Shown here: positions 19,284 through 35,950 of the stretch, piece by piece
Layout of the letters: each line of letters begins with the position of its first letter
How positions within the stretch are numbered: the stretch's first letter is position 1
Translations under genes and position numbers: made by a program
From: an uncultured Pseudomonadota bacterium
GTDB lineage: Bacteria > Pseudomonadota > Alphaproteobacteria > JACZXZ01
DNA: 37,168 bases
Reading direction: 5' to 3'
Assembly: GCA_963842155.1 (NCBI GenBank)
Contig: CAWJFP010000037.1
Location: 1 to 37,168 of the forward strand
Notes under the pieces: generated by a model
Seen by the model: the letters and a program-made list of their open reading frames with translations, nothing else
Databases searched by the model: none
Told to the model about the DNA's origin: nothing

Positions 19284-19339
19284 TGGAGTGAAGAACAGGC
19301 CCGCGTCGGACCAACGGTCGGCGGGCGGGAGGAAGTAAG

Positions 19340-22300
19340 ATGTCCGTCGCCATTCTCGGTAGCCTGATCATCTGGCTGATCGTCGCGGTCATCGTCATCG
19401 CGATCGTCGTCTATTTCGTCAACTGGCTCTACCACCGTTCCTCGAAGGAAGTCTCCTTCGTGCGCACCGGCCTGTTCGGCGAAAAGGTGGTGATCAACAG
19501 CGGGGCCTTCGTTCTGCCGTTCATTCACGAGGTCACCCCGGTCAACATGAACGTCCTGCGCATGCAGGTCGTCCGCAACCGCGATGACGCGCTCATCACC
19601 AAGGACCGGATGCGCGTCGACATCGAGTCGGAGTTTTACGTCCGGGTGCCGCCGACGCGGGAGGCGGTGACGATCGCCGCCGCAACGCTCGGCCGGCGCA
19701 CGACCAACGTCGCCGAGCTCGACACGCTGTTATCCGGCAAGTTCATCTCCGCCCTGCGCTCGGTCGCCTCCGAGATGACGATGGTGGAGATGCACGAGCG
19801 GCGCGGCGAATACGTCGCCCGGGTCAAGGAATCGGCGCTGGAAAGCCTCAAGCAGAACGGCCTCGAACTCGAATCGGTGGCGATCACTGATCTCGACCAG
19901 ACCGACCTTGAATTTTTCAATCCGTCGAACCGCTTCGACGCCGAAGGTCTGACCAAGCTGATCGAGGACATCGAAGCGCGGCGCAAGCTGCGCAACGACA
20001 TCGAACAGGAATCGATGATCCTCATTCGCAGCCGCAATCTCGAAGCCGAGAAACAGGCGCTGGACATTGATCGCGAAAGCGAGACCGCACGCCTCAATCA
20101 GGAACGTGACATCGAGGTGAGACGCGCGGTTCAGCGCGCCGAACTCGCCCGCGAGCGCTCCTTGCGCGACACCGAGGCGGAGCAGGCCCAAATCTCCGGC
20201 CGCGAGGAGGTCGAGAAGACACGCATCGCCCATGAGCGCACCCTCGCCGAGGCGCGCATCACTTCCGAGCGCGAAATTCGCGAGCGCGAGATCGAGCGTG
20301 GTCGCCAGATCGACGAGGCGGAGATCGCTGCGCGCGAACGCGTCGAGCGCGCGCGCATCGCCCAGGAACGGGTCGTCACCGAGGCGCGGATCGCCCGCGA
20401 GGAAGACGACCAGCGACGTGAAATCGAACGCACGCGCAACGTCGAGCAGGCCGAAATTGTCGCGCGCGAGGAGACCGAGAAAGCGCGCATCGCGCAGGAG
20501 GTCGCAGTGACCGCGGCGCGCATCGCCCAGGAGCGAGGAGAATAGGCGCCTCGAGATCGAGCGCGCGCGCAACTTGGAGCAGGCCGAGATCGCGGCTCGC
20601 GAGACCACCGAGCGCGCGCGTATCGCGCAGGAGCGCGTGGTCACTGACGAACGCATCGCGCTCGAAGAAGAAATCCGGCGCCGCGAGATCTCGCGCAACC
20701 GCGCGATCGACGAGGAAGAGATCGCCGCTGCGAAGGCCACAGAAGCCGCCCGCATCGCTCGCGAAAAGGCGCTCGCCGCCGAGCGCATCGCCTCCGAGCT
20801 CGCCACCCGGACGCTCGAAATCGAGCGGACGCGGTCGCTGGAGGAAACCGATATCGCGGCGCGAGAAGTCACGGCCGCGGCGCGCATCCAGCAGGAGGAG
20901 CGCATCCGAGCGCTCGACATCGCCCGCAACCGCTCGATCGAGGAGGCCGAGATCGCGGCGCGCGAGGCGGTCGAGGCGTCGCGTATCGCCCAGGAGAAGA
21001 AGATCGCCGTCGAGCGGATCGCCGCCGAGGAGCTGACGAGGAGCCGCGAGATCGGGCGAATCAAGACCATCGAGGCCGCCGAAATCGCCGCCCGCGAGTC
21101 GACCGAGACCGCGCGCATCGCCCTCGACAAGAAGATCGCCGCGGACCGTATCGGCGCCGACCAGGAGACCCGCGGGCTGGAGATCGCCCGCAACGAAGCG
21201 ATCGAGTCCGCCGAGATCGCCTCGCGCCAGGTCGTCGAATCGGTCCGCATTCTGGAGGACCGCAAGATCGCCGCGGAGAAAATATCGCGCGATGAAGAGG
21301 TGCGCTCGCTGGAGATTGCCCGCAATCGCGCGGTCGATACGGCCGAGATCGCGGCGCGCGAGGCGGTCGAGGCGACGCGTATCGCCCAGGAGAAGAGGAT
21401 CGCCGCGGAGCGCATCGCGGCCGAACAGGAGACCAAATCGCGCGACATTGCGCGCGAGCAGGCGATCGAAGACGCCGAGATCAGGCGGCGCGAGGCCGTC
21501 GAGGCCGCGCGCATCGCGGTCGAACTTGCGCTGGAGCAGGAGAGGATCGAGTCGTCGAAGACGCGCGATGTACTCGACGTCGAGCGCCGGAAAGTCTTGG
21601 AGATCGCCGAGCAGGATCGCTCGATCGAAGTCGCAGCCAAGCTTGCCGAGCGTGCTGACGCCGATCGTCGGGTGAAGGAAGCCGATATCGTCGCGGCGCA
21701 GCACGTGGGGCGCACAGACGTTGTGCGCGAGCAGACCCTCGATCTGGCCCGGCTCGAACGCCGAAGGGCGGTGGAGCAATTCGAGGTCGCCCGCTCACAG
21801 TCACTGCAGGAAGCCGAGATCGCGGCCCGCGAGGAGGTCGAGCGTGCGCGCATCGCCTCGGAACGTGGCATCGACGAGGCGCGCATCCTGCGCGACCGGG
21901 AACTGCGTCAGCTCGAAATCGGCCGCGAAACGGCGGTCGAGACCGCCCGCATGGAGAGCACCATCGAAATCCACCGCAAGTCGCGCGAACAGTCGGCGGC
22001 ACAGGCCGACGCCGAGACGGCCCGCGCCCAAGCGGTCGAGGCCGAGGAGCGGGTCAAGACGGTACGCGAGAGCGAGGCGGCGCGCCGCCGGCGCGCGGTC
22101 GAAGTGCTCATCGCCGAGAAGGAGGCCGACGAAGTGCGGATCGCGGCGGCTGCCGAACAGGTGCGCTCCGCGGTCGAGGCCGACGCGCAGCGGCTCCTCA
22201 ACGAAGCCGAGAACGTTCTCACCGACGCGGCCCGCGCGTCGCTGTTCCGCCGCAGGCTGCTCGAGCGTATCGAAGGCATCGTCCGCGAGAGCGTCAAGCC

Positions 22301-22595
22301 GATGGAGAAGATCGAGGGCATCCGCATCCTGCAGGTCGACGGCCTCAACGGCGGGCGCGGCGGCTCGGGTGGGCGCAGCGCCACCGATGAGGTCATCGAT
22401 TCGGCGCTGCGTTACCGCGTGCAGGCGCCGATGATCGACCAGATCCTCGCCGAGATCGGCATCGAGGGCGGCAGCCTCTCGCGAATGCCGGGCCTCATTC
22501 GCGAGGCGCGCGATATGCAGGGCATCCGCAAGGAGGCGGCGCCGAAGAAGCCGCCCGAAGAGGGCGGAGGCGGATCATCGTCGGGGCAGACCTGA
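19340..22595 (+). CDS. Giant flotillin / SPFH (band-7) family protein (~1085 aa) with an expanded coiled-coil repeat region; one apparent +1 frameshift at about 20535-20545
   Basis: N-terminal TM helix (ILGSLIIWLIVAVIVIAIVVYFV), then an SPFH domain (EVSFVRTGLFGEKVVINSGAFVLPFIHEVTPVNMNVLRMQVV...). A long E/A/R/I-rich repeat region follows, then a flotillin-type C-terminus (...IRILQVDGLNGGRGGSGG...). ORFs 19340..20545 and 20574..22595 join if one G is removed from cgagGag: ...ARIAQER(E)ENRRLEIERARNLEQAEIAARE... continues the repeat pattern without a break. Confidence 0.7.
20040..21650. repeat. About twelve tandem 132-bp (44-codon) coding repeats inside the flotillin-like gene
   Basis: Example: gccgagatcgcggcgcgcgaggcggtcgaggcg(t/a)cgcgtatcgcccaggagaag(a/g)a(g)gatcgccg appears at about 20948 and again at about 21345 (3 x 132 bp) with 2-3 mismatches. 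The protein-level unit is RxLEIxRxRxxExAEIAAREAVEAxRIAQEKxIAAERIAAEQET. Confidence 0.8.
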
Positions 22596-22625: not shown

Positions 22626-23063
22626 ATGCCCCGCGTCTATGTCTCGAGCGTCATCAACGGTCGCTCCGACCGCGTCTGGGCGCGGGTGCGCGATTTCAAT
22701 GGCTTGCCCTCCTGGCATCCGGGGATCGCGGAGAGTCGGATCGAGAACGGCGAACCGGCGGACAAGGTCGGCTGCGTGCGCGACTTCCGCCTGCGCAACG
22801 GCGACCGAATCCGGGAAAAGCTTCTCGGTCTGTCGGACTTCGATCTGTTCTGCACCTATTCGATCCTCGAATCCCCCATGGGCGTCGAGAATTACGTGGC
22901 GACGCTCCGTCTCACCCCGATCACCGACGGAGAGCGGACCTTCGTCGAGTGGACGGCGGAATTCGACTGCCCGCCGGAGCGCGAGGCCGAGCTCGTCTCG
23001 ACGATCGGAGGCGGCGTTTTCCAGGGCGGTTTCGACGCCCTGAAACGCCAGTTCGCAGGATGA
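22626..23063 (+). CDS. SRPBCC-superfamily protein (polyketide cyclase / START / CoxG-like fold)
   Basis: 145 aa; begins MPRVYVSSVINGRSDRVWARVRDFNGLPSWHPGIAES... with the typical SRPBCC opening (x-I-x-A-P-x-D-x-VW); a GGAGCG Shine-Dalgarno precedes the ATG. Confidence 0.6.
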   Translation: MPRVYVSSVINGRSDRVWARVRDFNGLPSWHPGIAESRIENGEPADKVGCVRDFRLRNGDRIREKLLGLSDFDLFCTYSILESPMGVENYVATLRLTPITDGERTFVEWTAEFDCPPEREAELVSTIGGGVFQGGFDALKRQFAG

Positions 23064-23084: not shown

Positions 23085-23546
23085 ATGATCCGGATTGTCC
23101 GCTCGACGATCATCGACGCGCCGACTGACCGCGTCTGGGCGTTCCTGCGCGATTTCAACGGGCACGAACGCTGGCATCCGGCCGTCGCCAAGAGCGCGAT
23201 CGAGCGCGGCCAGAGCGCCGACAAACTGGGTTGTGTGCGGCGCTTCTTCCTGCGCGACGGCTCGGAGCTCCGCGAGCGTCTGCTGACACTCTCCGACCTC
23301 GAGCAGAGCTTTACCTATTGCCTGCTCGAGACGCCGATTCCGCTATTCAATTATACTGCCCATGTCCGCCTCGCGCCGGTCACCGATGGCGACCGGACGT
23401 TCTGGGAGTGGCGGTGTTCGTTCTCGACGAGGAAAGGCGAGGAGGCTGAAATGACGCGCCTCGTCGGCGAGGACATCTATGACGCGGGATTCGCCGCCGT
23501 TCGTGCTCATCTCGCCGCATCCTCGGGATTGGAGGGCCGCGCGTGA
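23085..23546 (+). CDS. SRPBCC-superfamily protein, tandem paralog of the preceding gene
   Basis: MIRIVRSTIIDAPTDRVWAFLRDFNGHERWHPAVAKSAIE... is about 45% identical to the upstream paralog. Its stop overlaps the GTG start of the FAD subunit (GTGA). Confidence 0.6.
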   Translation: MIRIVRSTIIDAPTDRVWAFLRDFNGHERWHPAVAKSAIERGQSADKLGCVRRFFLRDGSELRERLLTLSDLEQSFTYCLLETPIPLFNYTAHVRLAPVTDGDRTFWEWRCSFSTRKGEEAEMTRLVGEDIYDAGFAAVRAHLAASSGLEGRA

Positions 23547-24355
23547 GCATCACGGTAAAGACCTTCGCCCGATTAGCCGACGCGGCCGCGGCGCTCGCGA
23601 GCGAACGCGGGGCGCGCTTTCTCGGCGGCGGAACGCTGCTCATGCGCGCGGTCAATGAGGCCGACCCGGCGATCGAGACGATCGTGCGCTCGAGCGATCC
23701 CACCCTCCTCAACATCGCAGTCTCGTCGGGCCGCGTGGAGCTCGGCGGCGGCGCGACCATGGCCGCGATCCTCGCCGAGCGCGAACTCGCGTTTCTGCAT
23801 CCGGTGGCGCGCGTGGTCGGCAGCCCGGCGGTGCGCGAGGCGGCGACCGTCGGCGGCAATCTGTTTGCGACAAAAGGCGACTTCGCGACGGCGCTGCTCG
23901 CGCTCGACGCGACCGTGATGCTCGCTGGCGGCGTCGGTCAACGCGAGCTGCCGCTCGAAGAGTTTCTCGGTCGTCGCGAGCGGGGGGCCGCGCTCGTATC
24001 GAGCGTCGCGTTCAAGCGGCCGGCGGCCGACGCGTTCCGGTTTGCCAAGGTCACCCGCGTCCACCCCAAAGGCATGTCGGTCCTCTCGATCGCTGCCCAA
24101 TTGCCCCTTGTCAGCGGCCGGATAACCGGCGCGAGGATTGCCTATGGCGGGATGGATCGTACGCCAGTGAGGGCCAAGGCGGCTGAACGGGCACTCGAGA
24201 GCCGCGGGCTCGACGCGGCCGGCATCGCTCCGGCTCTCGCCGTAGCCGCCGACGGCACCTCACCCGCCGACGACGCGATCGCCAGCGCCTGGTGGCGGCG
24301 GGAAATCCTCCTTGTCCATCTGCGCCGGCTGCTGCTCGGCGTCGGCCAAGCGTGA
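23543..24355 (+). CDS. Molybdopterin-dehydrogenase FAD-binding (medium) subunit, CoxM/XdhB-like
   Basis: RFLGGGTLLM and ...REAATVGGNLF... FAD-binding motifs; 270 aa; GTG start coupled to the preceding gene. Confidence 0.75.
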   Translation: MSITVKTFARLADAAAALASERGARFLGGGTLLMRAVNEADPAIETIVRSSDPTLLNIAVSSGRVELGGGATMAAILAERELAFLHPVARVVGSPAVREAATVGGNLFATKGDFATALLALDATVMLAGGVGQRELPLEEFLGRRERGAALVSSVAFKRPAADAFRFAKVTRVHPKGMSVLSIAAQLPLVSGRITGARIAYGGMDRTPVRAKAAERALESRGLDAAGIAPALAVAADGTSPADDAIASAWWRREILLVHLRRLLLGVGQA

Positions 24356-24362
24356 GGCGCCG

Positions 24363-24842
24363 ATGAAGACGCCGATTCAATTTCGTCTCAATGATGAGGA
24401 TGTCGCCGCCTTCGCCGAGAGCGGCGCCAACCTGCTCGACGTGCTGCGCGAATCGGTCGGCGACCTGTCGGTGAAGGGCGGCTGCTGGCAGGGCACCTGC
24501 GGCGCGTGCACGGTGCTTGTCGACGGCGCGCCGCGCCTTGCCTGCGTAACACTGGCGGAAAGCTGCGCCGAGCGGTCGGTCGAGACCGTCGCGGGGCTGC
24601 GGCGCGGCCCCGACCTCCACCCCCTGCAAAGTGCCTTCATGGAGCGCTTCGCGGCCCAGTGCGGCTATTGCACGCCGGGCATGCTGATGGCAGCCAAGGC
24701 GCTCCTCGACCGCAATCCCAATCCCTCCCGGGAGGATGTCGTCGACGCCATTTCCGGCAATATCTGCCGCTGTACTGGCTATGAACCCATCATCCAGGCG
24801 GTCCTCGAAGCCGCCCGCGGCGACAGCCGTCGCCGCGCCTGA
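24363..24842 (+). CDS. (2Fe-2S)-binding small subunit, CoxS/XdhC-like
   Basis: MKTPIQFRLNDEDV... with plant-type ferredoxin cysteines CWQGTCGACTV and a second cluster motif QCGYCTPGMLM...GNICRCTGYEPI. GAGG Shine-Dalgarno 7 nt upstream. Confidence 0.85.
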   Translation: MKTPIQFRLNDEDVAAFAESGANLLDVLRESVGDLSVKGGCWQGTCGACTVLVDGAPRLACVTLAESCAERSVETVAGLRRGPDLHPLQSAFMERFAAQCGYCTPGMLMAAKALLDRNPNPSREDVVDAISGNICRCTGYEPIIQAVLEAARGDSRRRA

Positions 24843-24853
24843 AGGACACCGCC

Positions 24854-26475
24854 ATGCTCGAATTCCGCAAGGACATTTTCGCCGACGAACGCGACGACAA
24901 CCTGAAGGAGGTCGGCCACCCGACGCAGCGTCAGGACATGCTCGGGCACGTCACCGGGACCTCGGCCTATTACGATGATCACCGCTTCGCCAACCTGCTC
25001 CATCTGAAGGTTCTGCGCAGTCCGCATGCCCATGCGCGTATTCGCTCGATCGACGACTCGGTCGCGGCGCGCGCGCCGGGCGTCAAGCGGATCATTCGGG
25101 CGGCCGACGTTCCGGTCAATCTCAATACGCTCTTGAGCCTCATCCAATTCGGCAAGGACGACGAGCCTTCGCTCGCGACCGACGTCGTGCGCTACAAGGG
25201 CGAGCCGATCATCGGAGTAGTCGCGACCAGCGAGCGCGCGGCGCTTCAGGCCCTCGCCATGGTGCGCGTCTCCTACGATCCGCTGCCGGCAGTCTTCGAT
25301 GTAGAGGAGGCGCTGAAGCCGGGAGCCCCGTCGGTCAACGCAACCTATCCGAAGAACACGTTCGAATATTACGGCAAATACGACCACCAGAAGCTTCGTT
25401 TCGGCGACGCCGATACGGCCTTCGCGCAGGCCGACGTCGTGCTCGAAGAGCGCTATCAGATGTCGCCGATCGAGCATGCCCCGATCGAGACCAACGGCTC
25501 AATCGCCGTGCCGGACACGAACGGCCGATTTGTCGTTTACACCTCGACCCAGGCGCTCTTCTTCTCTTTGGACACCGCCGCCAAGATCAATGCGATGCCC
25601 TCGAACCAGTTGCATTTCATCGGCGGCACTGTCGGCGGCGGCTTTGGCGGCAAGGTCGACACCCTCACCGAGCCCCTCGTCATCCTCGCGGCGCGCCTGA
25701 CGGGCGCACCCGTGCGCTACCGGCTGAGCCGGCACGAGGAAATGCAGTTCGGCTCGCCCCGCGGCGCTGAGCGAATCTATGTCAAAGACGGCGTCATGCG
25801 GGATGGGCGGATCATCGCCCGCAAGGTGAGAGCTTATTTCGACAGCGGGGCCTACACGCGGCTTTCGAGCTACGCGGCAGTCAAATGCGCGGCCCATATT
25901 CCCGGACCCTATACGATCCCCAACGTCCACGCGGACATCTTCTGCGTTTTCACCAACCGAACACCGGCGACCGCAATGCGCGGGTTCGGCGTCACGGCGC
26001 TCGACTTCGCGCTTGAATGCCAAATGGACAAGCTCGCCGTTGCGGTCGAGATGGACCCTCTCGAGTTCCGCATTCTCAATGCTTACCGCGACGGCGACAT
26101 GAAAGCGCACCGGCGCGAGGCCAAGAACTGCGCGCTCATCGAATGCGCGCAGGTCGCCGCTGAAAAAGCCAACTGGCCGATCCGCGAGGAATTCCGCAGG
26201 ATGTCGTCGCGGGTCGGCGGGGGGCAGCGCGGACCGGCGGCGGCGCGACCCGGACCGGCGCACAGGCTCCTGTCGCCGCCCCCGCGCCCGCACAAACCGG
26301 GGCAGGCTCGCCCCAGCGTGTCCCGTACGATCGCGCCGCTGCGGCCGCGCCGGCACATAACGTGCCACCGCCGACGCCCGCGCGAAGCGCACCGCCACCC
26401 CCTGCCGCGCCGCCTGCCGGATCGACGCATGGGGCGCCGCGCTTTTCCTCAGTTTTTGGAACACGGAGGCGCTGA
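24854..26475 (+). CDS. Molybdopterin-binding subunit, N-terminal half (xanthine dehydrogenase / aldehyde oxidase family), with a probable Pro/Ala-rich C-terminal tail reached through a -1 shift in a G6 homopolymer
   Basis: Conserved to about aa 450 (...HFIGGTVGGGFGGKVDT..., ...TPATAMRGFGVTALDFALECQMDKLA...). After the G-run at 26219-26224 the annotated frame becomes Arg-rich nonsense and overruns the next start. The -1 frame instead gives AQAPVAAPAPAQTGAGSPQRVPYDRAAAAAPAHNVPPPTPARSAPPPPAAPPAGS... and stops at TGA 26473-26475, 3 nt before the next ATG, which has a GGAGG Shine-Dalgarno. Confidence 0.65.
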
Positions 26476-26478
26476 TCA

Positions 26479-27501
26479 ATGGCCAAGCATCGCGGACGCG
26501 GGGTGGCGACCATCAATTATCCGATCGGCATGAATCTCGGCGGCGATCCGAGCCAAGCGCTGGTTCATTCCAATCCGAGCGGAAAATTCACCGTCGCTCT
26601 TTCCTCGATCGACCTCGGACAGGGAATGAAATCGGTGACGCGGCAGATCTGCGCGGAGACGCTAGGCGTGCCGGTCGAGGACGTCTATGTCGACACCGCC
26701 GATTCGGACACCGGCCCGCATTGCATGGGCTCGTTCGCCTCGCGCGGAACGCACCGCGTCGGCAACGCGGTGATGGTAGCGGCGCGCGAGGCGCGCGCGG
26801 TCATGATGGAGGCGGCGGCGGAGGAGCTTGAAGTCGACCCAGGCGACCTCGAGACCGACGGGCGCGGCTCCATCCGGGTGAAGGGCGCGCCCCACCGGTC
26901 GATCTCCGTGCGCGACGTCGCTATCGCGGCCCAGTTCCGTCAGGGACGTACGATCTCCGGGCGCGGCATTTTCCTGGTGCCGTTGTCGGACGTCGATCCG
27001 GAAACCGGCGAGATGTCGCCGGCAACCTGCTACGCCCACGCCTGTCTCATTGTCGAAGTCGAGGTCGATGACGAGACCGGCGACGTCACCGTGCTGAAGA
27101 TGACAAGCGCCTACGAGGTTGGGCGCGCGATCAACCCCAAGCTCGTCGAACAGCAACTCGTCGGCGGCTCATGGATGGGCATGAGTCACGCGCTCTATGA
27201 GACTACGGAACCGTATTACCCGGATACCCGTGAGGGACCGCGGGACTTCAACGAATACCTGATGCCCGGCCCCGGCGACATCTGTCCGCACGACATTGTG
27301 GTGCTCGAACGGCCCGCCCCTGACGGCCCCTTCGGCGCGAAGGGCCTGGGCGAGATGTGCGCCAATCCCGTCCTGCCGGCGGTCGCCAACGCGATTTTCG
27401 CGGCGGTTGGTGTGCGTATCAACGAACTGCCAATCACGCCGGAGAAAGTTCTCAGGGCGCTGAAAGCGCGGGGCGGCGCGGCCCCGGCGCGCGCGCGGTG
27501 A
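26479..27501 (+). CDS. Molybdopterin-binding subunit, C-terminal half (separate ORF; split large subunit)
   Basis: MAKHRGRGVATINYPIGMNLGGDP... corresponds to the start of the C-terminal Mo-cofactor domain of single-chain XDH-family large subunits. It has its own GGAGG Shine-Dalgarno and ATG, and a conserved ...GPFGAKGLGEMCANPVLPAVANAI... tail. Confidence 0.75.
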   Translation: MAKHRGRGVATINYPIGMNLGGDPSQALVHSNPSGKFTVALSSIDLGQGMKSVTRQICAETLGVPVEDVYVDTADSDTGPHCMGSFASRGTHRVGNAVMVAAREARAVMMEAAAEELEVDPGDLETDGRGSIRVKGAPHRSISVRDVAIAAQFRQGRTISGRGIFLVPLSDVDPETGEMSPATCYAHACLIVEVEVDDETGDVTVLKMTSAYEVGRAINPKLVEQQLVGGSWMGMSHALYETTEPYYPDTREGPRDFNEYLMPGPGDICPHDIVVLERPAPDGPFGAKGLGEMCANPVLPAVANAIFAAVGVRINELPITPEKVLRALKARGGAAPARAR

Positions 27502-27507
27502 TCTGTC

Positions 27508-28389
27508 ATGGCGGTGCGCCGTACCATCGTCGGCATCGGCAGCCCGCGGGAGCTCGAGGAGGCGCTTCGCGCCGCCTACTACCTGGCCGACGAGGAGCTT
27601 TCGACCGCCGCCTATCTCGCGCTCGCCCTCGGCAAGCCGCTCTTGCTCGAAGGCGCGCCGGGCGTGGGCAAGACCGAAGCCGCCAAGGCGATTGCCGGCG
27701 TGCTCGGCCGCATCCTCCTCCGCCTGCAATGCTACGAGGGCATCGACGCGGCGGCGGCGCTCTACGAATGGAATTTTCCGCGCCAGATGCTCGCGCTGCG
27801 CCGGGAGGGCGCCGGCGAGGTCGACATCTATCGCGACGAGTTCCTTATCGAGCGGCCGATGCTCGCCTGCCTGCGGCGTCCCGAAGAAACAGTGCTGCTC
27901 ATCGACGAGATCGACCGCTCCGACCACGAGTTCGAGGCCTTCCTCCTCGAGTTTCTTTCCGACTTTCAGATTTCGATTCCCGAGCGAGGCACCATTCGCG
28001 CTTACGAGCGGCCGGTCGTGATCCTCACCTCCAATCGGACACGCGAATTGCATGAAGCATTGCGTCGCCGCTGCGTCTATCACTGGATCGATTATCCCGC
28101 GCCCGAGCGCGAAATGCGGATCATCATGATGCGCGCATCGGGTGTTGGCGAGCGGGCGGCGCGGGCCGTCGTCGCCGCAGTGGGACGATTGCGCCGCGAG
28201 CCGCTCGCCAAGCTCCCCGGGATCGCGGAGGCGGTCGAATGGGCGGAGGCCGCAACGCTCCTCAACGAACAGGGAACGCGGTGGCCGGAAGCCTTCCGGC
28301 GCTCGCTCGGCGTCGTCCTCAAGGACGAGGACGACTTCGTTCATGTCGCGCCGAAGATCGACGCCATTCTCGCGGAGGCGCAGGCATGA
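27508..28389 (+). CDS. MoxR-type AAA+ ATPase, CoxD-like maturation factor
   Basis: Walker A LLEGAPGVGKT, Walker B VLLIDEIDR, sensor ...ILTSNRTRELHEALRRRC...; it sits in the canonical position after the Mo subunit. Confidence 0.85.
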   Translation: MAVRRTIVGIGSPRELEEALRAAYYLADEELSTAAYLALALGKPLLLEGAPGVGKTEAAKAIAGVLGRILLRLQCYEGIDAAAALYEWNFPRQMLALRREGAGEVDIYRDEFLIERPMLACLRRPEETVLLIDEIDRSDHEFEAFLLEFLSDFQISIPERGTIRAYERPVVILTSNRTRELHEALRRRCVYHWIDYPAPEREMRIIMMRASGVGERAARAVVAAVGRLRREPLAKLPGIAEAVEWAEAATLLNEQGTRWPEAFRRSLGVVLKDEDDFVHVAPKIDAILAEAQA

Positions 28390-29498
28390 TCGACACGGCG
28401 CGTCCCATTGCCCACTTCCTCGGCTTCACCGCGCTGCTGCGGCGCGCGGGCTTCGCCGTCGCGCCCGAGCAGACGATGGCTTGGCTCGCCGCGATCGATC
28501 TTCTCGGACCCGAAGAGATCGGCGACGTCCGTCGCGCCGCCCGCGCCACGCTGGCGCCGCCGCCGGAGCGCTTCGCCGAATTCGACGCGCTGTTCGATGC
28601 GCATTTTCTCGGCGCGCTAGGCTCGCAACTGGAATCAGAGCCGAGCGACGAGGCGCCGCTGCGGGCTGCCGACGATTCGTCGGTTGGGCCCGAGCCGATT
28701 TTCGGCGAGGAGACGCGTGAATCGGGCGCCAAGGCGACTGGCGCCGAGAGACTCTCGGCGCGGCGCTTCGGACCCGGGGACCAGAACGAAACGCTGCGTC
28801 GCTTCGCCCGCGCTTTGCCGGCCCGCGTGCCGCGGCGACGCGGTTATCGCTGGCGGGCGGCGCGCGGCGGGCCCGGCACCGATGCGCGGCGCATGTTTCG
28901 CGACGCCATGCGCCACGCCGGCGAGTTCATCCGGCTGCGCCGCCGCAGGCGCCGTCTGCGGCAGCGCCGCATCGTCGTCCTTATCGATGTCTCCGGCTCG
29001 ATGAAGGAGCGCACGCAAGCCCATCTTGCCTTCGCCCATGCCCTGGCGCGCGCCGCCGAGACTGCCGAGGTGTTCACGATCGGGACGAGGCTCACACGCA
29101 TTACCCGGGCGTTGCGGCTGCGCAACCGCGAACGGGCGCTCGCCGCCGCGTCTTTGCTCGTTGCCGACTGGGACGGCGGCACCCGCATTGGTGAGGCGCT
29201 CGGGGCCTTTCTCGCCATTCCGCGCTTCGCCGCGCTGGCGCGCGGGGCGGCGCTCGTCGTCCTTTCGGACGGGCTCGAGCGCGGCGATCCGAGCGCGATG
29301 CGCGACGCGGTCGAGCGCTTCTCTCGGATCGCGTGGCGGACCGTGTGGCTGACGCCGCTCGCCGCCGATCCGGCCTTCGAGCCTCGCACCGCCGGCCTGA
29401 GCGCGGCGCGGCCCTTCCTCGACGAACTCGGCGACGGCGGCTCGATCGACAGCATCTGCGCCCATGTTCTCGATTTGGCGAACGCGAGGGCGGCATGA
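28386..29498 (+). CDS. VWA-domain protein, CoxE-like
   Basis: ATG overlaps the coxD-like stop (ATGA). VWA MIDAS motif ...RIVVLIDVSGSM... in the C-terminal half; N-terminal region typical of CoxE. Confidence 0.75.
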   Translation: MIDTARPIAHFLGFTALLRRAGFAVAPEQTMAWLAAIDLLGPEEIGDVRRAARATLAPPPERFAEFDALFDAHFLGALGSQLESEPSDEAPLRAADDSSVGPEPIFGEETRESGAKATGAERLSARRFGPGDQNETLRRFARALPARVPRRRGYRWRAARGGPGTDARRMFRDAMRHAGEFIRLRRRRRRLRQRRIVVLIDVSGSMKERTQAHLAFAHALARAAETAEVFTIGTRLTRITRALRLRNRERALAAASLLVADWDGGTRIGEALGAFLAIPRFAALARGAALVVLSDGLERGDPSAMRDAVERFSRIAWRTVWLTPLAADPAFEPRTAGLSAARPFLDELGDGGSIDSICAHVLDLANARAA

Positions 29499-30383
29499 CG
29501 GCGATCGTCGACGCCCATCACCACATCTGGCGGCGCCGCGACCTGCCCTGGCTCGACGGGCCGATGCAGCCACGCATCTTCGGCCCTTACGAGCCGATCC
29601 GCCGCGACTATCCGATCAGCGAATATCTGGAGGACATCGCGGGCTGCGACGTGACCCGATCCGTCTACGTCCAGGCCAATTGGGCCAAGGACGCCTTCGA
29701 GGACGAAGTCGCCTACGTGCAGCGCGCCGCCGACGAGAGCCGGTTATCCGCAGGCGATCGTTGGCTACGCCGACTTTCTCTTGAAGGACGTGCGCCCGCA
29801 GCTCGACCGCCTGACTAAATATCGCGGCATGCGCGGGTTGCGAATGCAGCTGCACTGGCACGAAAACCCGCAATACCGGTTCGCGGCGGACCCAGACCTA
29901 GCCCGCAACCCGACGCTGCAACGAAACGTCGCCCACCTCGCCGATTACAACTGGAGCTTCGATCTCCAGGTCTTCGCCGGTCAGATGGACGGCGCGGCGG
30001 ACCTCGCTGCCAGCTGTCCCAAGGTTATTTTCATCCTTCAGCACGCCGGCATGCTGGAAGACCTTTCCGCGACCGGATGGACGCAATGGCGCGCCGGGAT
30101 GCGCCGTCTCGCCGCGTGCCCGAACGTGGTTTCGAAGCTGTCCGGCCTCGGCTCGTTCATCCATAGCAACGATCCCGACCACATCACGGCCATCGTGCGC
30201 GAAACTGTCGAGGCGTTCGGTCCGACACGCTGTCTGTTCGGCTCGAATTTCCCGATCGAAAAATTGTGGACGTGGTATTCCGACCTCGTCGCGGCGTACC
30301 GAGGCGCGCTCGCGCCGTTCGGAGAAGCGGCGGCGGGCGCGGCGCTCCATGAAACGGCGGCAAGGGTTTATCGGCTCAATTGA
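29495..30383 (+). CDS. Amidohydrolase-2 family (PF04909) metal-dependent hydrolase/decarboxylase, with an apparent +1 frameshift at about 29741
   Basis: MTAIVDAHHHIWRRRDLPWL... carries the HxH metal motif. After ...VQRAADES the conserved continuation GYPQAIVGYADFLLKDVRPQLDRLTKYRGMRGLRMQLHWHENP...ILQHAGM...LFGSNFPIEK is in the +1 frame. An extra C (gagagcCggttat) explains it. ATG overlaps the coxE-like stop. Confidence 0.7.
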
Positions 30384-30416
30384 CTAGGGGTTTGGACCCC
30401 GAGCGGGGAGGAACGC

Positions 30417-31265
30417 ATGGCGCTCGAAATCAAGATTCTCGACTACGGCGATATCGAACTCGAATCGAGCTTCCTGGTGCTCTATCGCGATTGCGGCCGC
30501 ACGCGCCGGGTGCCGGTCTTCGGCTTTCTCGTTCTCGGCGGGACTTGGCCGGTGCTGGTCGACACCGGCTATCGCTCGAACCAGATCATGGAGACTCTCG
30601 GGATGCGCGGGCTGCAATCCCACGAGACTATGATCGAGAACCAACTGAAGAAGCACGGGCTGAAGCTCGGGGACGTGCGCTACGTCCTCCATACGCACCT
30701 GCATATCGACCATGCCGGCAAGGACGACCTCTTCCCCATGAACACGGCGGCCGTCATCAATCGGCGCGAGCTCGAATATTCGGTTTCGGGCCTCATGCAT
30801 CCGCAATATCCGGCGGTCGACATCAAGCATCTCGTCGATCGCCTCCACACCAAGGGGGCGCTGCGCTTTCTCGACCTCGAAATATCCGGGCCGACCGAAC
30901 TGATGCCAGGGCTCATCTGCGAGGCAGCCGGCGGCCATACCGAGGGCTCGATGAACGTCATCGTGAAGACCAGCGAAGGGGTCGCGACGATCTGCGGCGA
31001 CGTGATCTACGACATAAACGACCAGCTGGTCGAACCCTTCCGCGAAATCGGCGACATGGAGCCGCGCGTCACAGGCAACCACGGCACGACGAAGCGCCAG
31101 GAGAAGGCCGCGATCAAGAAGGTCGTCGCCAGCTCGCGCTTCGTGTTGCCGGTCCACGACCGTCCGGCGCTAATCGAGGCCGGGCAGGTTGTCGGCCGTC
31201 TGCAGGACTCGGTTCCGGGTGCAATCGTCCAGTCCTTGCCGAGACGCCAATGGTTCCCGGCGTGA
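30417..31265 (+). CDS. MBL-fold metallo-hydrolase (AHL-lactonase-like)
   Basis: HTHLHIDHAG (HxHxDH zinc motif) with downstream His/Asp ligands; 282 aa. Confidence 0.75.
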   Translation: MALEIKILDYGDIELESSFLVLYRDCGRTRRVPVFGFLVLGGTWPVLVDTGYRSNQIMETLGMRGLQSHETMIENQLKKHGLKLGDVRYVLHTHLHIDHAGKDDLFPMNTAAVINRRELEYSVSGLMHPQYPAVDIKHLVDRLHTKGALRFLDLEISGPTELMPGLICEAAGGHTEGSMNVIVKTSEGVATICGDVIYDINDQLVEPFREIGDMEPRVTGNHGTTKRQEKAAIKKVVASSRFVLPVHDRPALIEAGQVVGRLQDSVPGAIVQSLPRRQWFPA

Positions 31266-31281
31266 CGAAAGGGGACGTCCA

Positions 31282-32853
31282 ATGAACCACTCCGCCCTGC
31301 GTCGCGAATTTTCGGATTTGATCGATCTCGACGCGCCCGTGGAGCGGCTGGCGGGCGGGTTCACGTTCACCGAGGGGCCGATCTGGCACCCGCGCGATCA
31401 ATACCTCCTCTTCTCCGACATGCCGGCCGACGTGCGGCGCCGCTACGACGAGCACGGCGGCGTGCGCGAAGTAATGAAGCCTTCAAACAAGTGCAACGGC
31501 ATGACCTACGATGCGAACCTCGCGCTCGTTATCTGCGAGCATGCGACGTCGAGCCTGGTGCGCGAGCGCGACGGGCGGCGCGAGATTCTTGCATCGCACT
31601 TCGAGGGCAAGGAACTCAACAGCCCGAACGACGTGTGCGTGCGCTCGGACGGTTCGATCTATTTTTCCGATCCCTGGTACGGGCGGATGCCGGTCTACGG
31701 CGTCGAGCGGCCCCGGCAGCTCGGGTTTCAGGGCGTCTACCGCGTGCCGCCGAGCGGCGGCGAGCCTCAGCTTCTCGTCGATCGCAACCTCTTCGAGCAG
31801 CCGAACGGGCTCTGTTTTTCGCCCGACGAGCGGCAACTCTACGTCAACGACACGGTGCGCGCGTTGATCCGAGTGTTCGACGTGAACGCCGACGGCTCGC
31901 TCGGCCCCGACCGCATCTTCGCCTCCGGCATTCGCTCCGAACTGGAGCCGGGGGTGCCCGACGGCATGAAATGCGACAGCGCCGGCAATGTCTGGGTGAC
32001 GGCGCCGGGCGGCGTATGGGTCTATTCGCGCTCGGGCGCGGTGCTCGGCAAGGTCAGGGTTCCGGAGCTCGTCGCCAATCTGCACTGGGGCAAGTCCGAT
32101 TGGCGCACGCTGTTCATGTGCGCCACCCATTCGCTCTATGGGGTGCGTACCAAGATCGGCCCTCGCGTCGAGCCCTTCATGCGATCGAATGCCCCAGCCA
32201 GCACGGGTGCGACGGCGGCAGCGCCCGAGCGTGCCAGCGCGAAAGGTGGTCTCGCGCTCGATCCTGCGCGCTGCGCGCTCATTATCCAGGACATGCAGAA
32301 CGACGTAATGATGGAAGGCGGCGCCTTCGCCTCCTCGGGCTCGCCGCAACACGCCCGCGCGCAGAACGTCATCGAGAACATCCGCCGCCTAGCCGACGCT
32401 TGCCGGTCGCGCGGCGTAATGATTATCCACGTTTGGTTCGTCGTCGAACCGGGCGCGCTCGGCTTCACGCTCAACGCACCGCTGTTCGAAGGCGTCGTCG
32501 ACCAGAAGGCGATGGTGCGCGGAACCTGGGGCGCGGCGCCGGTCGCCGGACTCGAGCCGCAGCCCGGCGACCACATCGTCGAAAAGATGCGCATGAGCGC
32601 GTTCGAAGGAAGCAAGCTCGAAACCGTCCTCAGGTCAGGCGGTCGCGACACGATCATCGACACCGGTGCGTGGACCAACATGTCGATCGAGCACACCGCC
32701 CGTACGGCGGCCGACAAGGGCTATTTCGTCGTCGTGCCGGAGGACTGCTGCTCGACGATGAATGCCGACTGGCACCGCGCTTCCATCCAATACGCCATGC
32801 AGAACGTCGCCGCGGTGACGAAAGCAACCGAGGTCATCGCCGCCCTGGGTTAG
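31282..32853 (+). CDS. Two-domain protein: SMP-30/gluconolactonase/LRE-like beta-propeller (aa 1-300) fused to an isochorismatase-like cysteine hydrolase (aa ~330-523)
   Basis: N-terminal part: ...FTEGPIWHPRDQYLLFSDMPA..., ...NSPNDVCVRSDGSIYFSDP..., ...PNGLCFSPDERQLYVND... are SGL hallmarks. C-terminal part: ALIIQDMQNDV...VMIIHVWF...DTIIDTGAWTNMSIEHTARTAADKGYFVVVPEDCCS is an isochorismatase-family core (D...K...C triad context). The two are joined by RSNAPASTGATAAAPERASAKGG with no stop or internal start codon. ATG at 31282 with an AAGGGGA Shine-Dalgarno. Confidence 0.6.
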   Translation: MNHSALRREFSDLIDLDAPVERLAGGFTFTEGPIWHPRDQYLLFSDMPADVRRRYDEHGGVREVMKPSNKCNGMTYDANLALVICEHATSSLVRERDGRREILASHFEGKELNSPNDVCVRSDGSIYFSDPWYGRMPVYGVERPRQLGFQGVYRVPPSGGEPQLLVDRNLFEQPNGLCFSPDERQLYVNDTVRALIRVFDVNADGSLGPDRIFASGIRSELEPGVPDGMKCDSAGNVWVTAPGGVWVYSRSGAVLGKVRVPELVANLHWGKSDWRTLFMCATHSLYGVRTKIGPRVEPFMRSNAPASTGATAAAPERASAKGGLALDPARCALIIQDMQNDVMMEGGAFASSGSPQHARAQNVIENIRRLADACRSRGVMIIHVWFVVEPGALGFTLNAPLFEGVVDQKAMVRGTWGAAPVAGLEPQPGDHIVEKMRMSAFEGSKLETVLRSGGRDTIIDTGAWTNMSIEHTARTAADKGYFVVVPEDCCSTMNADWHRASIQYAMQNVAAVTKATEVIAALG

Positions 32854-32855
32854 AG

Positions 32856-32905
32856 CATGATCCCGAAAAGTGGAATCCGGTTTTCGAAAAAGATCATGCT
32901 CAATC
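32856..32905. terminator. AT-rich extended hairpin between the convergent SGL-isochorismatase gene and the SDR remnant
   Basis: gagcatgatc-ccgaaaa-gtggaatccgg-ttttcg-aaaaa-gatcatgctc: a 10-bp outer stem plus a 6-bp inner stem, starting 3 nt after the TAG stop. It is atypically low-GC for this genome. Confidence 0.35.
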
Positions 32906-33102: not shown

Positions 33103-34376
33103 AATCACTTTAGGGCACCTCGAAAAATAGCCGCCTTAGCCAGTTTGTGCGAGTTCTAACTGATGAGGACAAGATTCGCAGAGGTGGGGCGATGGGACAA
33201 CTCGGATTTTTCGATGCGGACAAGCGGCTTGCGGCGATTTCTGCGAAGGGCGATCCGCTGGAGATGATCGATCGGGTGGTGCCGTTCGAGCGCTTCCGTG
33301 CCGAGATTGAGGCGGTAGTGTTGACGCCGGCGGAGGACAAGAAGAGCAGCGCTGGCCGCAAGCCGATCGATGTCATCGTGATGTTTCGGATGCTGGTGCT
33401 GCAATCGCTCTACAATCTTTCCGACGAGCAGGTCGAGTATCAAGTGAGCGACCGCATGTCGTTTACGCGGTTTCTGCGGCTTGGCATTGAGGATCGCGTA
33501 CCCGACGGCACGACGCTGTGGCTGTTCCGTGAGACGTTGGGGAAGGCCGGGCTGATCGAGAGGCTGTTCAAGCGCTTTAGCCGGCATTTGGAGGCGAAGG
33601 GCTACATTGCACGTGGCGGCCAGATGGTAGATGCCACGATCGTGCCGGTTCCCAAGCAACGTAATAGCCGCGAAGAGAATGAGGCCGTGAAGGCCGGCAA
33701 GACACCACAGGAATGGCAGAAGAACCCCGCGAAAAACCGGCAGAAAGACAAGGATGCGCGCTGGACCAAGAAGCACGGTAAGAGTTTCTACGGCTACAAG
33801 AACCACGTGAATGCGGATGCCAAGCACAAGCTGATCCGTCACTACGAGGTGACCGACGCGAGCGTGCATGACAGCCGGAAGTTCTATGGGCTTCTGAACA
33901 AGGCCAACACGTCTGCGAACGTATACGCGGACAGCGCGTATCGCTCGGCCGCGACCGAGGCGAAGCTCAAGGTGCGCGGCTTGCACAGTCACATTCATCA
34001 GCGTGCGAGCCGCAATCATACGCTATCGAAAGCACAGGAGAACGCCAACCACCAGAAGAGCAAGGTTCGGGCTCGCGTCGAGCACGTGTTCGGTGCTCAG
34101 CAAACATCGCCGGGTGGTCGGATTGTACGGACGATCGGTATCGTGCGGGCGAAAGCCAAGATCGGCCTGCAGAACCTCGCCTACAACATCCGCCGGCTTG
34201 TGACGCTGGAGCGGATGGTGGCCGCGGCATAACGGAGAAGTCCGACTGAAGGGCCCTGAACAGGGCACCTGCCGCAAAAAGCGGAGACGCATCCGCGCCA
34301 AATCAACAGTGGAAATGATCGTCGCGCCGCAGGGGTGGCCGAGCCAACGACAAAATCATCATTGTTCGAGGTTCCC
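33103..34376 (+). mobile_element. IS5-family insertion sequence (1274 bp) with imperfect 16-18 bp terminal inverted repeats and 4-bp TTTA target-site duplication
   Basis: Left end GGGCACCTCGAAAAATAG (33103-); right end reverse-complement GGGAACCTCGAACAATGA (-34376). TTTA lies immediately outside both ends (33099-33102 and 34377-34380). Removing the element restores the SDR reading frame. Confidence 0.75.
33192..34232 (+). CDS. IS5-family DDE transposase
   Basis: MGQLGFFDADKRLAAISAKGDPLEMIDRVVPFERFRAEIE... parallels IS5 Ins5 (MSHQLTFADSEF...EQILPWQ). DDE_Tnp_1 core ...GQMVDATIVPVP...YGYKNHVNADAKHKLIRHYEVTDASVHDS...ADSAYRS...; 346 aa; GAGGTGG Shine-Dalgarno. Confidence 0.85.
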   Translation: MGQLGFFDADKRLAAISAKGDPLEMIDRVVPFERFRAEIEAVVLTPAEDKKSSAGRKPIDVIVMFRMLVLQSLYNLSDEQVEYQVSDRMSFTRFLRLGIEDRVPDGTTLWLFRETLGKAGLIERLFKRFSRHLEAKGYIARGGQMVDATIVPVPKQRNSREENEAVKAGKTPQEWQKNPAKNRQKDKDARWTKKHGKSFYGYKNHVNADAKHKLIRHYEVTDASVHDSRKFYGLLNKANTSANVYADSAYRSAATEAKLKVRGLHSHIHQRASRNHTLSKAQENANHQKSKVRARVEHVFGAQQTSPGGRIVRTIGIVRAKAKIGLQNLAYNIRRLVTLERMVAAA

Positions 34377-35290
34377 TTTAGCGCCCTCGCCGGCGAATTT
34401 TTCTGCAATCGCCCGGCCGATGCCCTGGCCCGCGGCGGTCACCAGCGCGACCTTCCCTTCCAGTCTGCTGCTCATGCTCGCCTCAATACGAGCCAAAAAG
34501 GCATATTGCGATCTTCGAGGGCAGCGCTTAGTGCGCTGGTTGAATGGCCAACGCAGCTTTTACACCCATTCATGATTGGGCTGGACAACATACACACGGA
34601 ATGTCCTGTCGGGTCTTTCGACCACCCAGTTTAGATAATTCCCCAAAAATCTTGGAGGCTTATTGAAAGCTGTCACGCGATTTACCTTAGTTCGGCATTA
34701 TGCGGTCTGGCCCTGAATCCGATTTGGTCGATGGCATCCTAAGCTAATTTCATCTACTTTTCGAATTCCAAGGCCTCATATCAGATATCCGATGTTCGAG
34801 CGCCCGCATTTCGGGTTGCTGAACCGTTTGGTGCACTCGAACACGGCCGTCGTCTCGCATCGCCAAGCGAGAAATGACCGGTTCGCTGCCGCGCATCCAA
34901 GCGGCACATAACCCGGAATTATTATCGGACGGATCGCGCGTGCCGATGTTCGGACTGGCGCAAAAACCTAATCTGCAGTTATGGTTCCAGGCACTTGGCC
35001 AGGATTTGCTTGGCGACCAGAGCCGAGCTGGCAATGCCTAAACTGCACGCATTGTTTTCCTCCCAATTCTCTAACAGGCTCGCCTGAGACTTGCACAACC
35101 TTTGGTCAAGCGGAATTGATGTTGGCCGCACCGATCAGGAAGCTTAGCATTGGTAAGGAAGTGATACCCGGGGTCGCTTGCCCACTCGAATCATCATAGG
35201 TCGTAGGCTCAGCGGGGCCACATGCCTCATATCGTGCAAAGTTCGCTTCCGAACTAAAATGGCCCGAATTAACATTGGCGAGGATAAAAC

Positions 35291-35676
35291 ATGTCCAAGC
35301 GCGTATGCCCGGATGCCGCATTACTGATGCTGCACTGGCAGAACAGTGTTTGCGACCCCAAAGGGGTCTGGGGCAAGAACCTTTGTGCGCAGATCGAAAA
35401 GGGAAACTCGATCAGCAACGCGCAGAAGGTGCTGGCGACCGCGCGCAGCCGGAGCATGCTGACCATCTTCGTCAATATTGGCTGGCGTCCCGGTTTCCCC
35501 GAAATGCCTGAGAACCAGCACTATCCGCTGTTGCAGGGTGCGAAGGACGAAAACAAGGGAATCATCGGCAGTTGGGAGGTTGACGTTATCGACGCGCTCA
35601 AGCCGACCAACAACGACCTGATCGTGATCAATTACGGCTCGGACAGCTTTGAAGGCACCGACCTCGACCGGATTTG
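35291..35676 (+). pseudogene. Isochorismatase-family hydrolase, N-terminal about 128 codons only (truncated at a recombination junction), in a low-GC segment
   Basis: MSKRVCPDAALLMLHWQNSVCDPKGVWGKNL...MLTIFVNIGWRPGFPEMP...LIVINYGSDSFEGTDLDRI matches the isochorismatase fold through the conserved GTDLD motif. Immediately after RI the sequence and GC content switch to an unrelated AraC-type C-terminus. Confidence 0.6.
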
Positions 35677-35679
35677 CGC

Positions 35680-35950
35680 ATCAACGCCCTGGACAGCCTT
35701 GGCGACCTGGCCAGCCGCGCTGGCGGGCACCGGGCCCGGCAGTACGGCTTCGCCGCGCTGACCGGCATGAGCCCGATGGCCTACCTGCGTCAGGTCCGCT
35801 TGCAGCGCGCCGATGCCGAACTGCGCGCCGCGGATAGCGCGGCCCGCGGCGTGGCGAGCATCGCCAGCCGGTGGGGGTTCGCCAACTTCGGCCGGTTCGC
35901 CGCCGCCTACCGGATGCCGCTACGGGCGCACGCCATCCGAGACGCTGCGC
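35680..35950 (+). pseudogene. AraC-family regulator C-terminal HTH fragment (no N-terminal domain, no start)
   Basis: ...RQYGFAALTGMSPMAYLRQVRLQRADAELRAADSAARGVASIASRWGFANFGRFAAAYR... carries the second AraC HTH signature. It begins abruptly at the junction with the truncated isochorismatase gene. Confidence 0.55.

Follow-up and report, generated by a model that had tools for sequence, protein, structure and literature searches.

The four-subunit nicotinate dehydrogenase (NDH) NdhFSLM of Eubacterium barkeri (PDB entry 3HRD) is a molybdenum (Mo) enzyme whose Mo subunit is split into two polypeptides, NdhL and NdhM. In another Mo hydroxylase, the 3-hydroxypyridine dehydrogenase HpdA, a separate SRPBCC subunit and an adjacent pair of kinase-type genes are required (bioRxiv 10.1101/2020.01.08.898148). 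The SRPBCC protein CoxG shuttles quinone to the flavin (FAD) site of the Mo-containing carbon monoxide dehydrogenase (CODH) and of other enzymes of the xanthine oxidase family (PMC12202499). MarK of Novosphingobium aromaticivorans is a UPF0261 aromatic kinase which phosphorylates aromatic hydroxyl groups in an ATP-dependent manner, and is the only UPF0261 member with known catalytic activity (PMC12624787). A gene block related to these systems was analysed on contig CAWJFP010000037.1 (assembly GCA_963842155.1) of an uncultured alphaproteobacterium; the entire stretch of 37,168 nt is referred to as the window. We consider it fairly probable that the block is a conserved catabolic operon, in which a four-subunit Mo hydroxylase acts on an organic ring compound and the ring is then opened by hydrolysis. 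Our best guess for the substrate is a hydroxylated aromatic or N-/O-heteroaromatic acid.

The HpdA, MarK and CoxG precedents make the accessory genes of the block intelligible, and each system resembles the locus only in part. E. barkeri NDH and the window enzyme both consist of four polypeptides, with the break in the Mo subunit at the same position, but the accessory genes in the window are CoxD/E-like, and its gene neighbourhood and host, an aerobic alphaproteobacterium, are unrelated to those of E. barkeri. HpdA1-4 of Ensifer adhaerens HP1, likened here by description, has in common with the window a free-standing SRPBCC protein, kinase-type genes, an ABC transporter and a regulator. It differs in its unsplit Mo subunit, in the predicted signal peptide and membrane segment of its SRPBCC protein and in its kinase, a phosphoenolpyruvate-utilising/PPDK pair in place of UPF0261. 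Its cluster also continues with maleamate-pathway oxygenase genes that are absent from the window. The cox cluster of Mo-CODH shares the three redox modules, the MoxR ATPase, the VWA protein and an SRPBCC partner, whereas the window has no Cys active-site loop, no CoxF, unanchored SRPBCC proteins of family PF10604 and a split Mo subunit. MarK (9MPY) is matched by the window UPF0261 domain at 2.7e-55, but this domain is closer to tomato Tm-1 (8.5e-93) and, unlike MarK, forms one protein with an ABC-transporter ATPase and has a gene for a PEP_hydrolase-like TIM-barrel protein as its partner.

The hydroxylase is encoded on the forward strand, as are all genes described below. The FAD subunit (NdhF/CoxM-like; 23543-24355; FAD_binding_5 and CO_deh_flav_C) is followed by the 2x[2Fe-2S] subunit (24363-24842; Fer2 and Fer2_2), in which both cysteine clusters are kept, and by the large and medium parts of the Mo subunit, Mo-L (NdhL-like; 24854-26475, frame broken; Ald_Xan_dh_C and MoCoBD_1) and Mo-M (NdhM-like; 26479-27501; MoCoBD_2). 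Upstream are two SRPBCC genes, encoding protein 1 (Polyketide_cyc2, 145 aa; 22626-23063; PF10604 at 5e-27) and its paralogue protein 2 (23085-23546; PF10604 at 4.6e-20). Downstream are two maturation factors, a CoxD-like MoxR AAA+ ATPase (27508-28389; AAA and AAA_5), which among NCBIfam models comes nearest to the MadB family ATPase with a score below cutoff, and a CoxE-like VWA protein (28386-29498; VWA_CoxE at 2.2e-48). The hydrolase genes follow, namely a frameshifted amidohydrolase-2 of the L-fuconolactonase-like subgroup (29495-30383; Amidohydro_2 in two frames), a lactonase-like MBL-fold hydrolase (30417-31265; Lactamase_B) and a fusion of SGL and isochorismatase-like domains (SGL::ISO; 31282-32853), with both domains in one open reading frame (ORF). 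Domains were assigned with Pfam, and those of the xanthine dehydrogenase (XDH) family all scored above the gathering thresholds. An earlier note on this DNA, made from the sequence alone, had given the same gene order and domain calls, all of which hold, although the start of 23543 that it gave for a series including both SRPBCC genes lies downstream of the start of either. The tight packing which it described was also seen, but not the overlap of start and stop codons at most junctions. Overlaps occur at 3 of the 11 junctions (SRPBCC-2/FAD, CoxD/CoxE and CoxE/amidohydrolase-2); the overlap is 4 nt between SRPBCC-2 and the FAD subunit gene, and also 4 nt between CoxE and each of its neighbours. 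The remaining eight junctions are gaps of 3-33 nt. From spacing and synteny, we infer a single transcript for the block.

To judge conservation, 80 related loci at 79-94% identity were collected from a scan with one genome per species; they come from metagenome-assembled genomes (MAGs) of Xanthobacteraceae and from many Bradyrhizobium isolates. Gene presence was counted over the 63 loci long enough to judge (full-span loci), Mo-L length, tail and spacing over 79, and the integrity of the two fusion genes over 70. The split of the Mo subunit, which the earlier note had given as two ORFs, was confirmed, and it is NdhL/NdhM-like. Among solved structures, E. barkeri NDH matches both halves best, NdhL (3HRD_A) for Mo-L at 1.2e-60 and NdhM (3HRD_B) for Mo-M at 5.2e-51. 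Residues 3-331 of Mo-M align with residues 2-328 of 3HRD_B, so that the chain is broken between MoCoBD_1 and MoCoBD_2 at the same point as in NdhL/NdhM. Mo-L is 524-561 aa long in 78 of the 79 loci, and in 77 of them 0-3 nt separate its stop from the following Mo-M ATG, with a 1-nt overlap in one. Close homologues of Mo-L are nearly all 510-560 aa and have no MoCoBD_2. A search of 1.84 billion cluster representatives gave both split forms (about 330-345 aa), among them many other M-type clusters, and unsplit forms (about 760 aa) at about 40% identity, so that a divided Mo subunit is a common arrangement in this part of the family. The split is natural.

The reading frame of Mo-L in the window needs correction. 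The ORF listed for it earlier, 24854-26533, is an artefact of a frameshift, as the G-run at 26219-26224 is one base short. One added G gives a 540-aa Mo-L with its stop at 26475, and the true tail, ending ...HGAPRFSSVFGTRRR*, is present in the window in the frame of the downstream gene. A programmed frameshift at the G-run was ruled out, since 78 of the 79 relatives read into the tail in one frame. A few 'fused' database entries of 855-881 aa are the same frameshift read-through. The frame was decided by homology; a GC3 frame plot left it undecided because the Pro/Ala codons are GC-rich at all three positions. The tail (26190-26475) is about 90-100 aa long, Pro/Ala-rich and common to all intact homologues, and it ends in a near-invariant HGxxRFSSVFGTRRR peptide; E. 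barkeri NdhL, in contrast, has no Pro/Ala-rich tail. It is intact in 75 of the 79 loci, with close variants of the motif in 3 more, the Shinella variant being NRFSSISGLRRR. The motif is kept at the protein level with synonymous differences in the DNA, and its last Arg codons contain the GGAGG ribosome-binding site of Mo-M.

The active site is that of a molybdenum hydroxylase. The motifs GGGFGGK (25634-25654) and AMRGFG (25973-25990) were found as reported in the earlier note, and Mo-M carries the catalytic Glu in GLGE (27343-27354). On alignment with 1FIQ and 3HRD, the Gln of STQ, the Phe of AMRGFG and the Glu of GLGE fall on catalytic positions, the Gln and the Glu being shared with E. barkeri NDH. 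In bovine numbering, we take these residues to be Q767 near Mo=O, F914 and the general base E1261. At the positions equivalent to E802 and R880 of bovine xanthine oxidase, Val and Lys are found. Domains, Fe-S cysteines and catalytic residues thus all place the enzyme in the XDH/molybdenum hydroxylase family. Scores on the NCBIfam models for xanthine dehydrogenase, 4-hydroxybenzoyl-CoA reductase, glyceraldehyde dehydrogenase and PaoC are far below their cutoffs. By sequence comparison the enzyme is a family member without a characterised counterpart, with nicotinate dehydrogenase as its nearest relative and 4-hydroxybenzoyl-CoA reductase as the next; this ranking is by PDB bit scores, a rough stand-in for a phylogeny with PicA, KdhL, QorL and HpdA.

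The association of the hydroxylase with its neighbours is conserved. The order flotillin, SRPBCC x2, FAD, FeS, Mo-L, Mo-M, CoxD, CoxE, MBL, SGL::ISO was found in 63 of 63 full-span loci. SGL::ISO is present in all 63, the MBL hydrolase in 62 (missing only in Shinella) and amidohydrolase-2 in 47, in agreement with the view in the earlier note that the hydrolases belong with the dehydrogenase. The amidohydrolase-2 gene also comes after CoxE in distant clusters of reduced content, in Sinorhizobium sp. BG8 (AraC, SRPBCC, XDH, CoxDE, amidohydrolase-2) and in Nonomuraea (GntR, XDH, CoxDE, amidohydrolase-2). The conserved block is larger than the earlier note had it: upstream on the same strand it takes in the flotillin gene, the TIM-barrel gene, an ABC-ATPase::UPF0261 fusion and further ABC-transporter genes for permeases and ATPases, and these neighbours are shared by Xanthobacteraceae MAGs, Bradyrhizobium isolates, Shinella and Yoonia. 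In Yoonia, a plasmid carries the whole block.

The hydrolases themselves were examined for their likely chemistry. The earlier note had compared them with enzymes of N-heterocycle pathways, a comparison which proved loose. The repaired amidohydrolase-2 is 295 aa long and at E<=1e-3 matches only the L-fucono-1,5-lactonase 4DLF (3e-19) and 6UVZ, which carries no name; no ACMSD-, PicC- or LigI-type chain was among its PDB matches at this threshold. Its sole NCBIfam match is L-fucono-1,5-lactonase NF052480, at 96.3 bits against a cutoff of 400. The closest solved relative, BmulJ_04915 (4DLF), aligns over the full length at only 73 bits, and such a match indicates the same subgroup, not the same enzyme. 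The MBL hydrolase has the HxHxDH motif as HLHIDH (30696-30713) and gives weak matches to AHL lactonases and 4-pyridoxolactonase. SGL::ISO matches 3E5Z at 7.8e-47 and 3KL2 at 1.1e-28, the SGL domain being related to bacterial gluconolactonases, and is a single ORF in 59 of 70 loci, the exceptions all being long-read MAG (MFD) loci. In its isochorismatase domain a Ser occupies the nucleophile position (TNMSIEHT, 32674-32697), and TNMS[IV]EHT with Ser is found in 68 of the 70 orthologues; the position is set by what we take to be the Cys of the RutB-family motif TNxC(V)E. The Asp-Lys-Cys triad of NicF, RutB, PncA and BiuH is absent from the domain, and on the NCBIfam models for RutB and BiuH it stays under the cutoffs. 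With Ser in place of the nucleophilic Cys, the NicF-like amidase that had been suggested is not borne out. As far as homology goes, three enzymes resembling lactonases, together with an atypical isochorismatase-like domain, are a better description of the suite.

The upstream part of the block begins with a probable regulator, an AraC-family protein (12405-13232; HTH_18 and HTH_AraC), followed by a HAAT-type ABC importer with two permeases and a LivG-like ATPase (13315-16235; BPD_transp_2 and ABC_tran), which is syntenic in relatives. In a full-length alignment (E 2e-47), the AraC protein shares 33% identity with the one encoded directly upstream of SRPBCC-XDH-CoxDE-Am2 in Sinorhizobium sp. 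BG8, where Am2 denotes amidohydrolase-2; through this homology the transporter genes upstream are linked with the dehydrogenase by a single type of regulator. Next is a LivF-like ABC ATPase fused to UPF0261 (Tm-1/MarK-like; 16219-18444; ABC_tran, UPF0261 and UPF0261_C). The fusion was considered as a possible artefact and this was ruled out, as it is a single ORF in 63 of 70 loci; it is also annotated as one coding sequence in Yoonia. The PEP_hydrolase-like TIM-barrel protein (18449-19291, start approximate; PF09370 at 2.3e-105) is the usual partner of UPF0261. The flotillin/SPFH protein (19340-22595; Band_7 and Flot) has a long internal repeat region of EIAAREA-like units. A gap of 30 nt separates its gene from the first SRPBCC gene downstream. 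In relatives the flotillin gene is undivided and encodes 1083 aa; it is a single ORF in loci L002 and L006 and present in 63 of 63 loci, and in Yoonia the flotillin stop abuts the SRPBCC start. SRPBCC proteins 1 and 2 are each present in 63 of 63 loci as well, and in the PDB they match uncharacterised SRPBCC proteins best and not CoxG.

These genes suggest the following sequence of steps. The ring compound would be imported by the HAAT-type ABC system and possibly phosphorylated by the UPF0261 kinase-like domain. The Mo centre, matured by the MoxR and VWA proteins, would hydroxylate it with oxygen from water, and the electrons would pass through the 2Fe-2S clusters to FAD and on to quinone. 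One or both SRPBCC proteins may present the quinone, as CoxG does for CODH; this quinone-shuttle role is proposed by analogy only. The lactone or lactam tautomer of the product would then be opened by hydrolysis, for which amidohydrolase-2, the MBL enzyme and SGL::ISO are candidates. As no oxygenase is encoded in the block, ring opening would have to be hydrolytic.

Several observations weigh against this interpretation. No substrate was identified from the sequence, as the earlier note had foreseen, and none of the proteins reached a curated equivalog cutoff in the NCBIfam scan. Amidohydrolase-2 is missing from 16 of the 63 loci and hence is not essential to the pathway, and the isochorismatase domain, without the usual Cys nucleophile, is of unclear chemistry. 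The SRPBCC proteins belong to PF10604 and not to the CoxG family, whose architecture is an SRPBCC domain, a linker and a C-terminal membrane helix; at 145-153 aa they have no space for a linker and helix after the domain. A promoter and terminator scan of 13.3-33.2 kb gave counts no higher than in shuffled sequence. Finally, a set of sugar-acid-type genes in Yoonia, encoding a fumarylacetoacetate hydrolase (FAH) family protein between two short-chain dehydrogenases/reductases (SDR-FAH-SDR), fits a non-aromatic substrate equally well.

A rival explanation is a route for sugar acids or aliphatic lactones. In it, the Mo enzyme would be an aldehyde or lactol oxidoreductase, and the three lactonase-like hydrolases, with SDR and FAH proteins encoded elsewhere, would process aldonolactones of the 6-deoxy-sugar type. 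The nearest PDB entry (4DLF) and the nearest NCBIfam model of amidohydrolase-2 are both L-fucono-1,5-lactonase, and the SGL domain is nearest to gluconolactonases. The SDR-FAH-SDR genes of Yoonia extend its operon (L082 18418-20752), and the FAH protein scores 412 bits on the model for 2,4-didehydro-3-deoxy-L-rhamnonate hydrolase, an enzyme of the rhamnonate pathway (cutoff 500). SDRs 52-55% identical to those of Yoonia lie convergently downstream in Xanthobacteraceae loci (L002 18837-20590). However, all these scores are under the curated cutoffs, no aldonate dehydratase is encoded in the block, and the transporter belongs to the HAAT/Liv type and not to one for sugars. The Mo subunit is nearest to nicotinate dehydrogenase and 4-hydroxybenzoyl-CoA reductase and not to PaoC- or glyceraldehyde-type enzymes, and the SDR and FAH genes are not in the window and are on the opposite strand in most relatives. 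We regard a sugar-lactone route as unlikely, and hydroxylation of a ring compound followed by hydrolytic opening as the preferred explanation.

Could the enzyme instead be an orthologue of nicotinate dehydrogenase, hydroxylating nicotinate at C6? Both Mo halves have 3HRD as best match with the same split point, and the position of Tyr13M of NDH, which we take to lie in the active site, is kept as the Y of INYPIG. In Azorhizobium, a member of the Xanthobacteraceae, nicotinate is hydroxylated by a membrane-linked enzyme, according to the older literature. The margin of the match is modest, however, at 209 versus 165 bits for the large part and 177 versus 159 bits for the medium part. The position of bovine R880 is Arg in NDH but Lys here, and the F1009/T1010 region also differs. 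The downstream genes of both known nicotinate pathways, for 6-hydroxynicotinate reductase and enamidase and for NicC, NicX, NicD and NicE, are all missing, and the isochorismatase domain has no NicF-type Cys. Orthology with nicotinate dehydrogenase is thus quite unlikely.

A more elaborate arrangement can be pictured for the same operon, in which the whole block from AraC to the hydrolases would form one membrane-organised metabolon. The kinase-like domain fused to the transporter ATPase would couple uptake to phosphorylation of the substrate, the RFSSVFGTRRR peptide on its flexible Pro/Ala tether would hold the hydroxylase at a flotillin microdomain, and the small SRPBCC proteins would carry quinone to the FAD site. 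As a joint proposal, uptake-coupled phosphorylation, flotillin tethering and quinone ferrying together are a long shot. If true, the metabolon would connect a soluble Mo hydroxylase with both transport and respiration in a new manner.

The window contains at least 6 single-base indels between 14.9 and 29.8 kb (within 19 kb) relative to the intact orthologues of L002 and L006, which served as references. Besides the G missing from Mo-L, the second permease (region 14383-15456) has two compensating indels about 80 nt apart with an out-of-frame stretch at about 14920-15000, and single-nucleotide insertions are present in the TIM-barrel gene (about 19136), in the flotillin gene (about 20534), which is split by it, and in amidohydrolase-2 (about 29739), which is thereby broken into two ORFs, 29333-29818 and 29781-30383. 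The breaks in Mo-L and amidohydrolase-2 had escaped the earlier note. If these frameshifts were real, the block would be a decaying array of pseudogenes, and the insertion sequence (IS) downstream would be part of the erosion. The number of indels, most of them outside long homopolymers, the IS element that abuts the cluster where downstream synteny is lost, and the loss of amidohydrolase-2 from a number of relatives would be in keeping with decay. However, apart from the indels the encoded proteins share 87-97% identity with the L002 orthologues, with no premature stops or other signs of decay. The closely spaced compensating indels of the permease are a pattern typical of local miscalls, and long-read MAG loci in the comparison set show broken reading frames of the same kind. 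Because of this identity and the similar breaks in long-read MAG loci, the indels, including the Mo-L and amidohydrolase-2 frameshifts, are most likely sequence errors, which suggests that the assembly is error-prone. Decay of the operon is improbable. With single-base indels this frequent, oddities at the level of ORFs in the window should not be taken as biology.

That the enzyme is a divergent, form II-like CODH is extremely improbable: MoxR, VWA_CoxE and SRPBCC genes do accompany CODH operons and the second-best PDB match of Mo-L is Mycobacterium smegmatis CoxL, but in alignments with this CoxL and with bovine xanthine oxidase ATAMRGFGV is found in place of the CODH loop, neither CODH loop motif (AYxCSFR of form I or AYRGAGR of form II) occurs anywhere in the Mo protein, the NCBIfam CODH models give 166-168 bits against cutoffs of 950-991, coxF was not found, the SRPBCC proteins are outside the CoxG family, and CoxD/E-like genes also accompany family members other than CODH (PMC12202499). 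As the active-site loop of CODH is absent, the predicted enzyme is not a CODH, and on this point, as on the missing CSFR and RGAGR loops, the earlier note was right. The preferred function remains hydroxylation of an organic ring compound.

The block had been called an island, a description which our comparison does not uphold. The same neighbours are found across genera in 63 of 63 loci, the GC content and composition of the block are uniform and like those of its flanks, and no transposase was found in any of the 63 related full-span loci. The flanks in the window are housekeeping genes, e.g. spermidine synthase and SAM decarboxylase. The only IS is an IS5-like element outside the operon (33112-34377; DDE_Tnp_1 and DUF772, with 17-nt inverted repeats) with its transposase at 33147-34232. 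It was seen only in this window (0 of 63 related loci), where it marks the downstream end of the operon, and the synteny that relatives show downstream is lost at this point, the genes for a glutathione S-transferase and the SDRs being missing from the window. In view of the shared neighbours, the flank-like composition and the lone window-specific IS downstream, the block is, on comparative grounds, an ordinary conserved chromosomal operon and not a genomic or mobile island.

The enzyme family is well understood, and no new kind of system is involved. The value of the locus lies in a widespread orthologous operon without an assigned substrate, found in Bradyrhizobium, Xanthobacteraceae soil MAGs, Shinella and Yoonia; several of the Bradyrhizobium carriers are culturable, among them Bradyrhizobium sp. 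STM 3562, B. pachyrhizi PAC 48 and B. jicamae PAC 68, which makes genetics feasible. Literature searches on MadB/MadC, on SRPBCC with CoxD/CoxE and on flotillin with molybdopterin yielded no account of such a cluster, a review of nicotinate dehydrogenase gave no further information on residues that bind the substrate, and a megablast search against plasmids for near-identical annotated DNA returned only a 77% Shinella match, which is unannotated. Four features appear worth study, namely the flotillin linkage, the ATPase::UPF0261 fusion, the C-terminal peptide of Mo-L and the Ser-type isochorismatase domain.

The same split enzyme is also encoded in the haloarchaeon Salinigranum, in a reduced version of the cluster that joins it to genes for an ABC transporter, a cyclase-family protein and an SRPBCC protein. 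On the Salinigranum rubrum plasmid (L083 9328-14434) the M part is 62% identical to Mo-M of the window, the Pro/Ala-rich tail is absent, and the enzyme genes adjoin the cyclase-family gene and the SRPBCC gene. Its presence in a haloarchaeon points to gene transfer between domains. Beyond the IS of the window, a second short ORF with an isochorismatase domain (35291-35761; 156 aa, covering part of the profile) was seen, with no counterpart in related loci. Right after the SGL::ISO stop, a stretch of about 50 nt (32851-32903) is 92-96% identical to Mesorhizobium and Sinorhizobium plasmids and is probably a small dispersed repeat.

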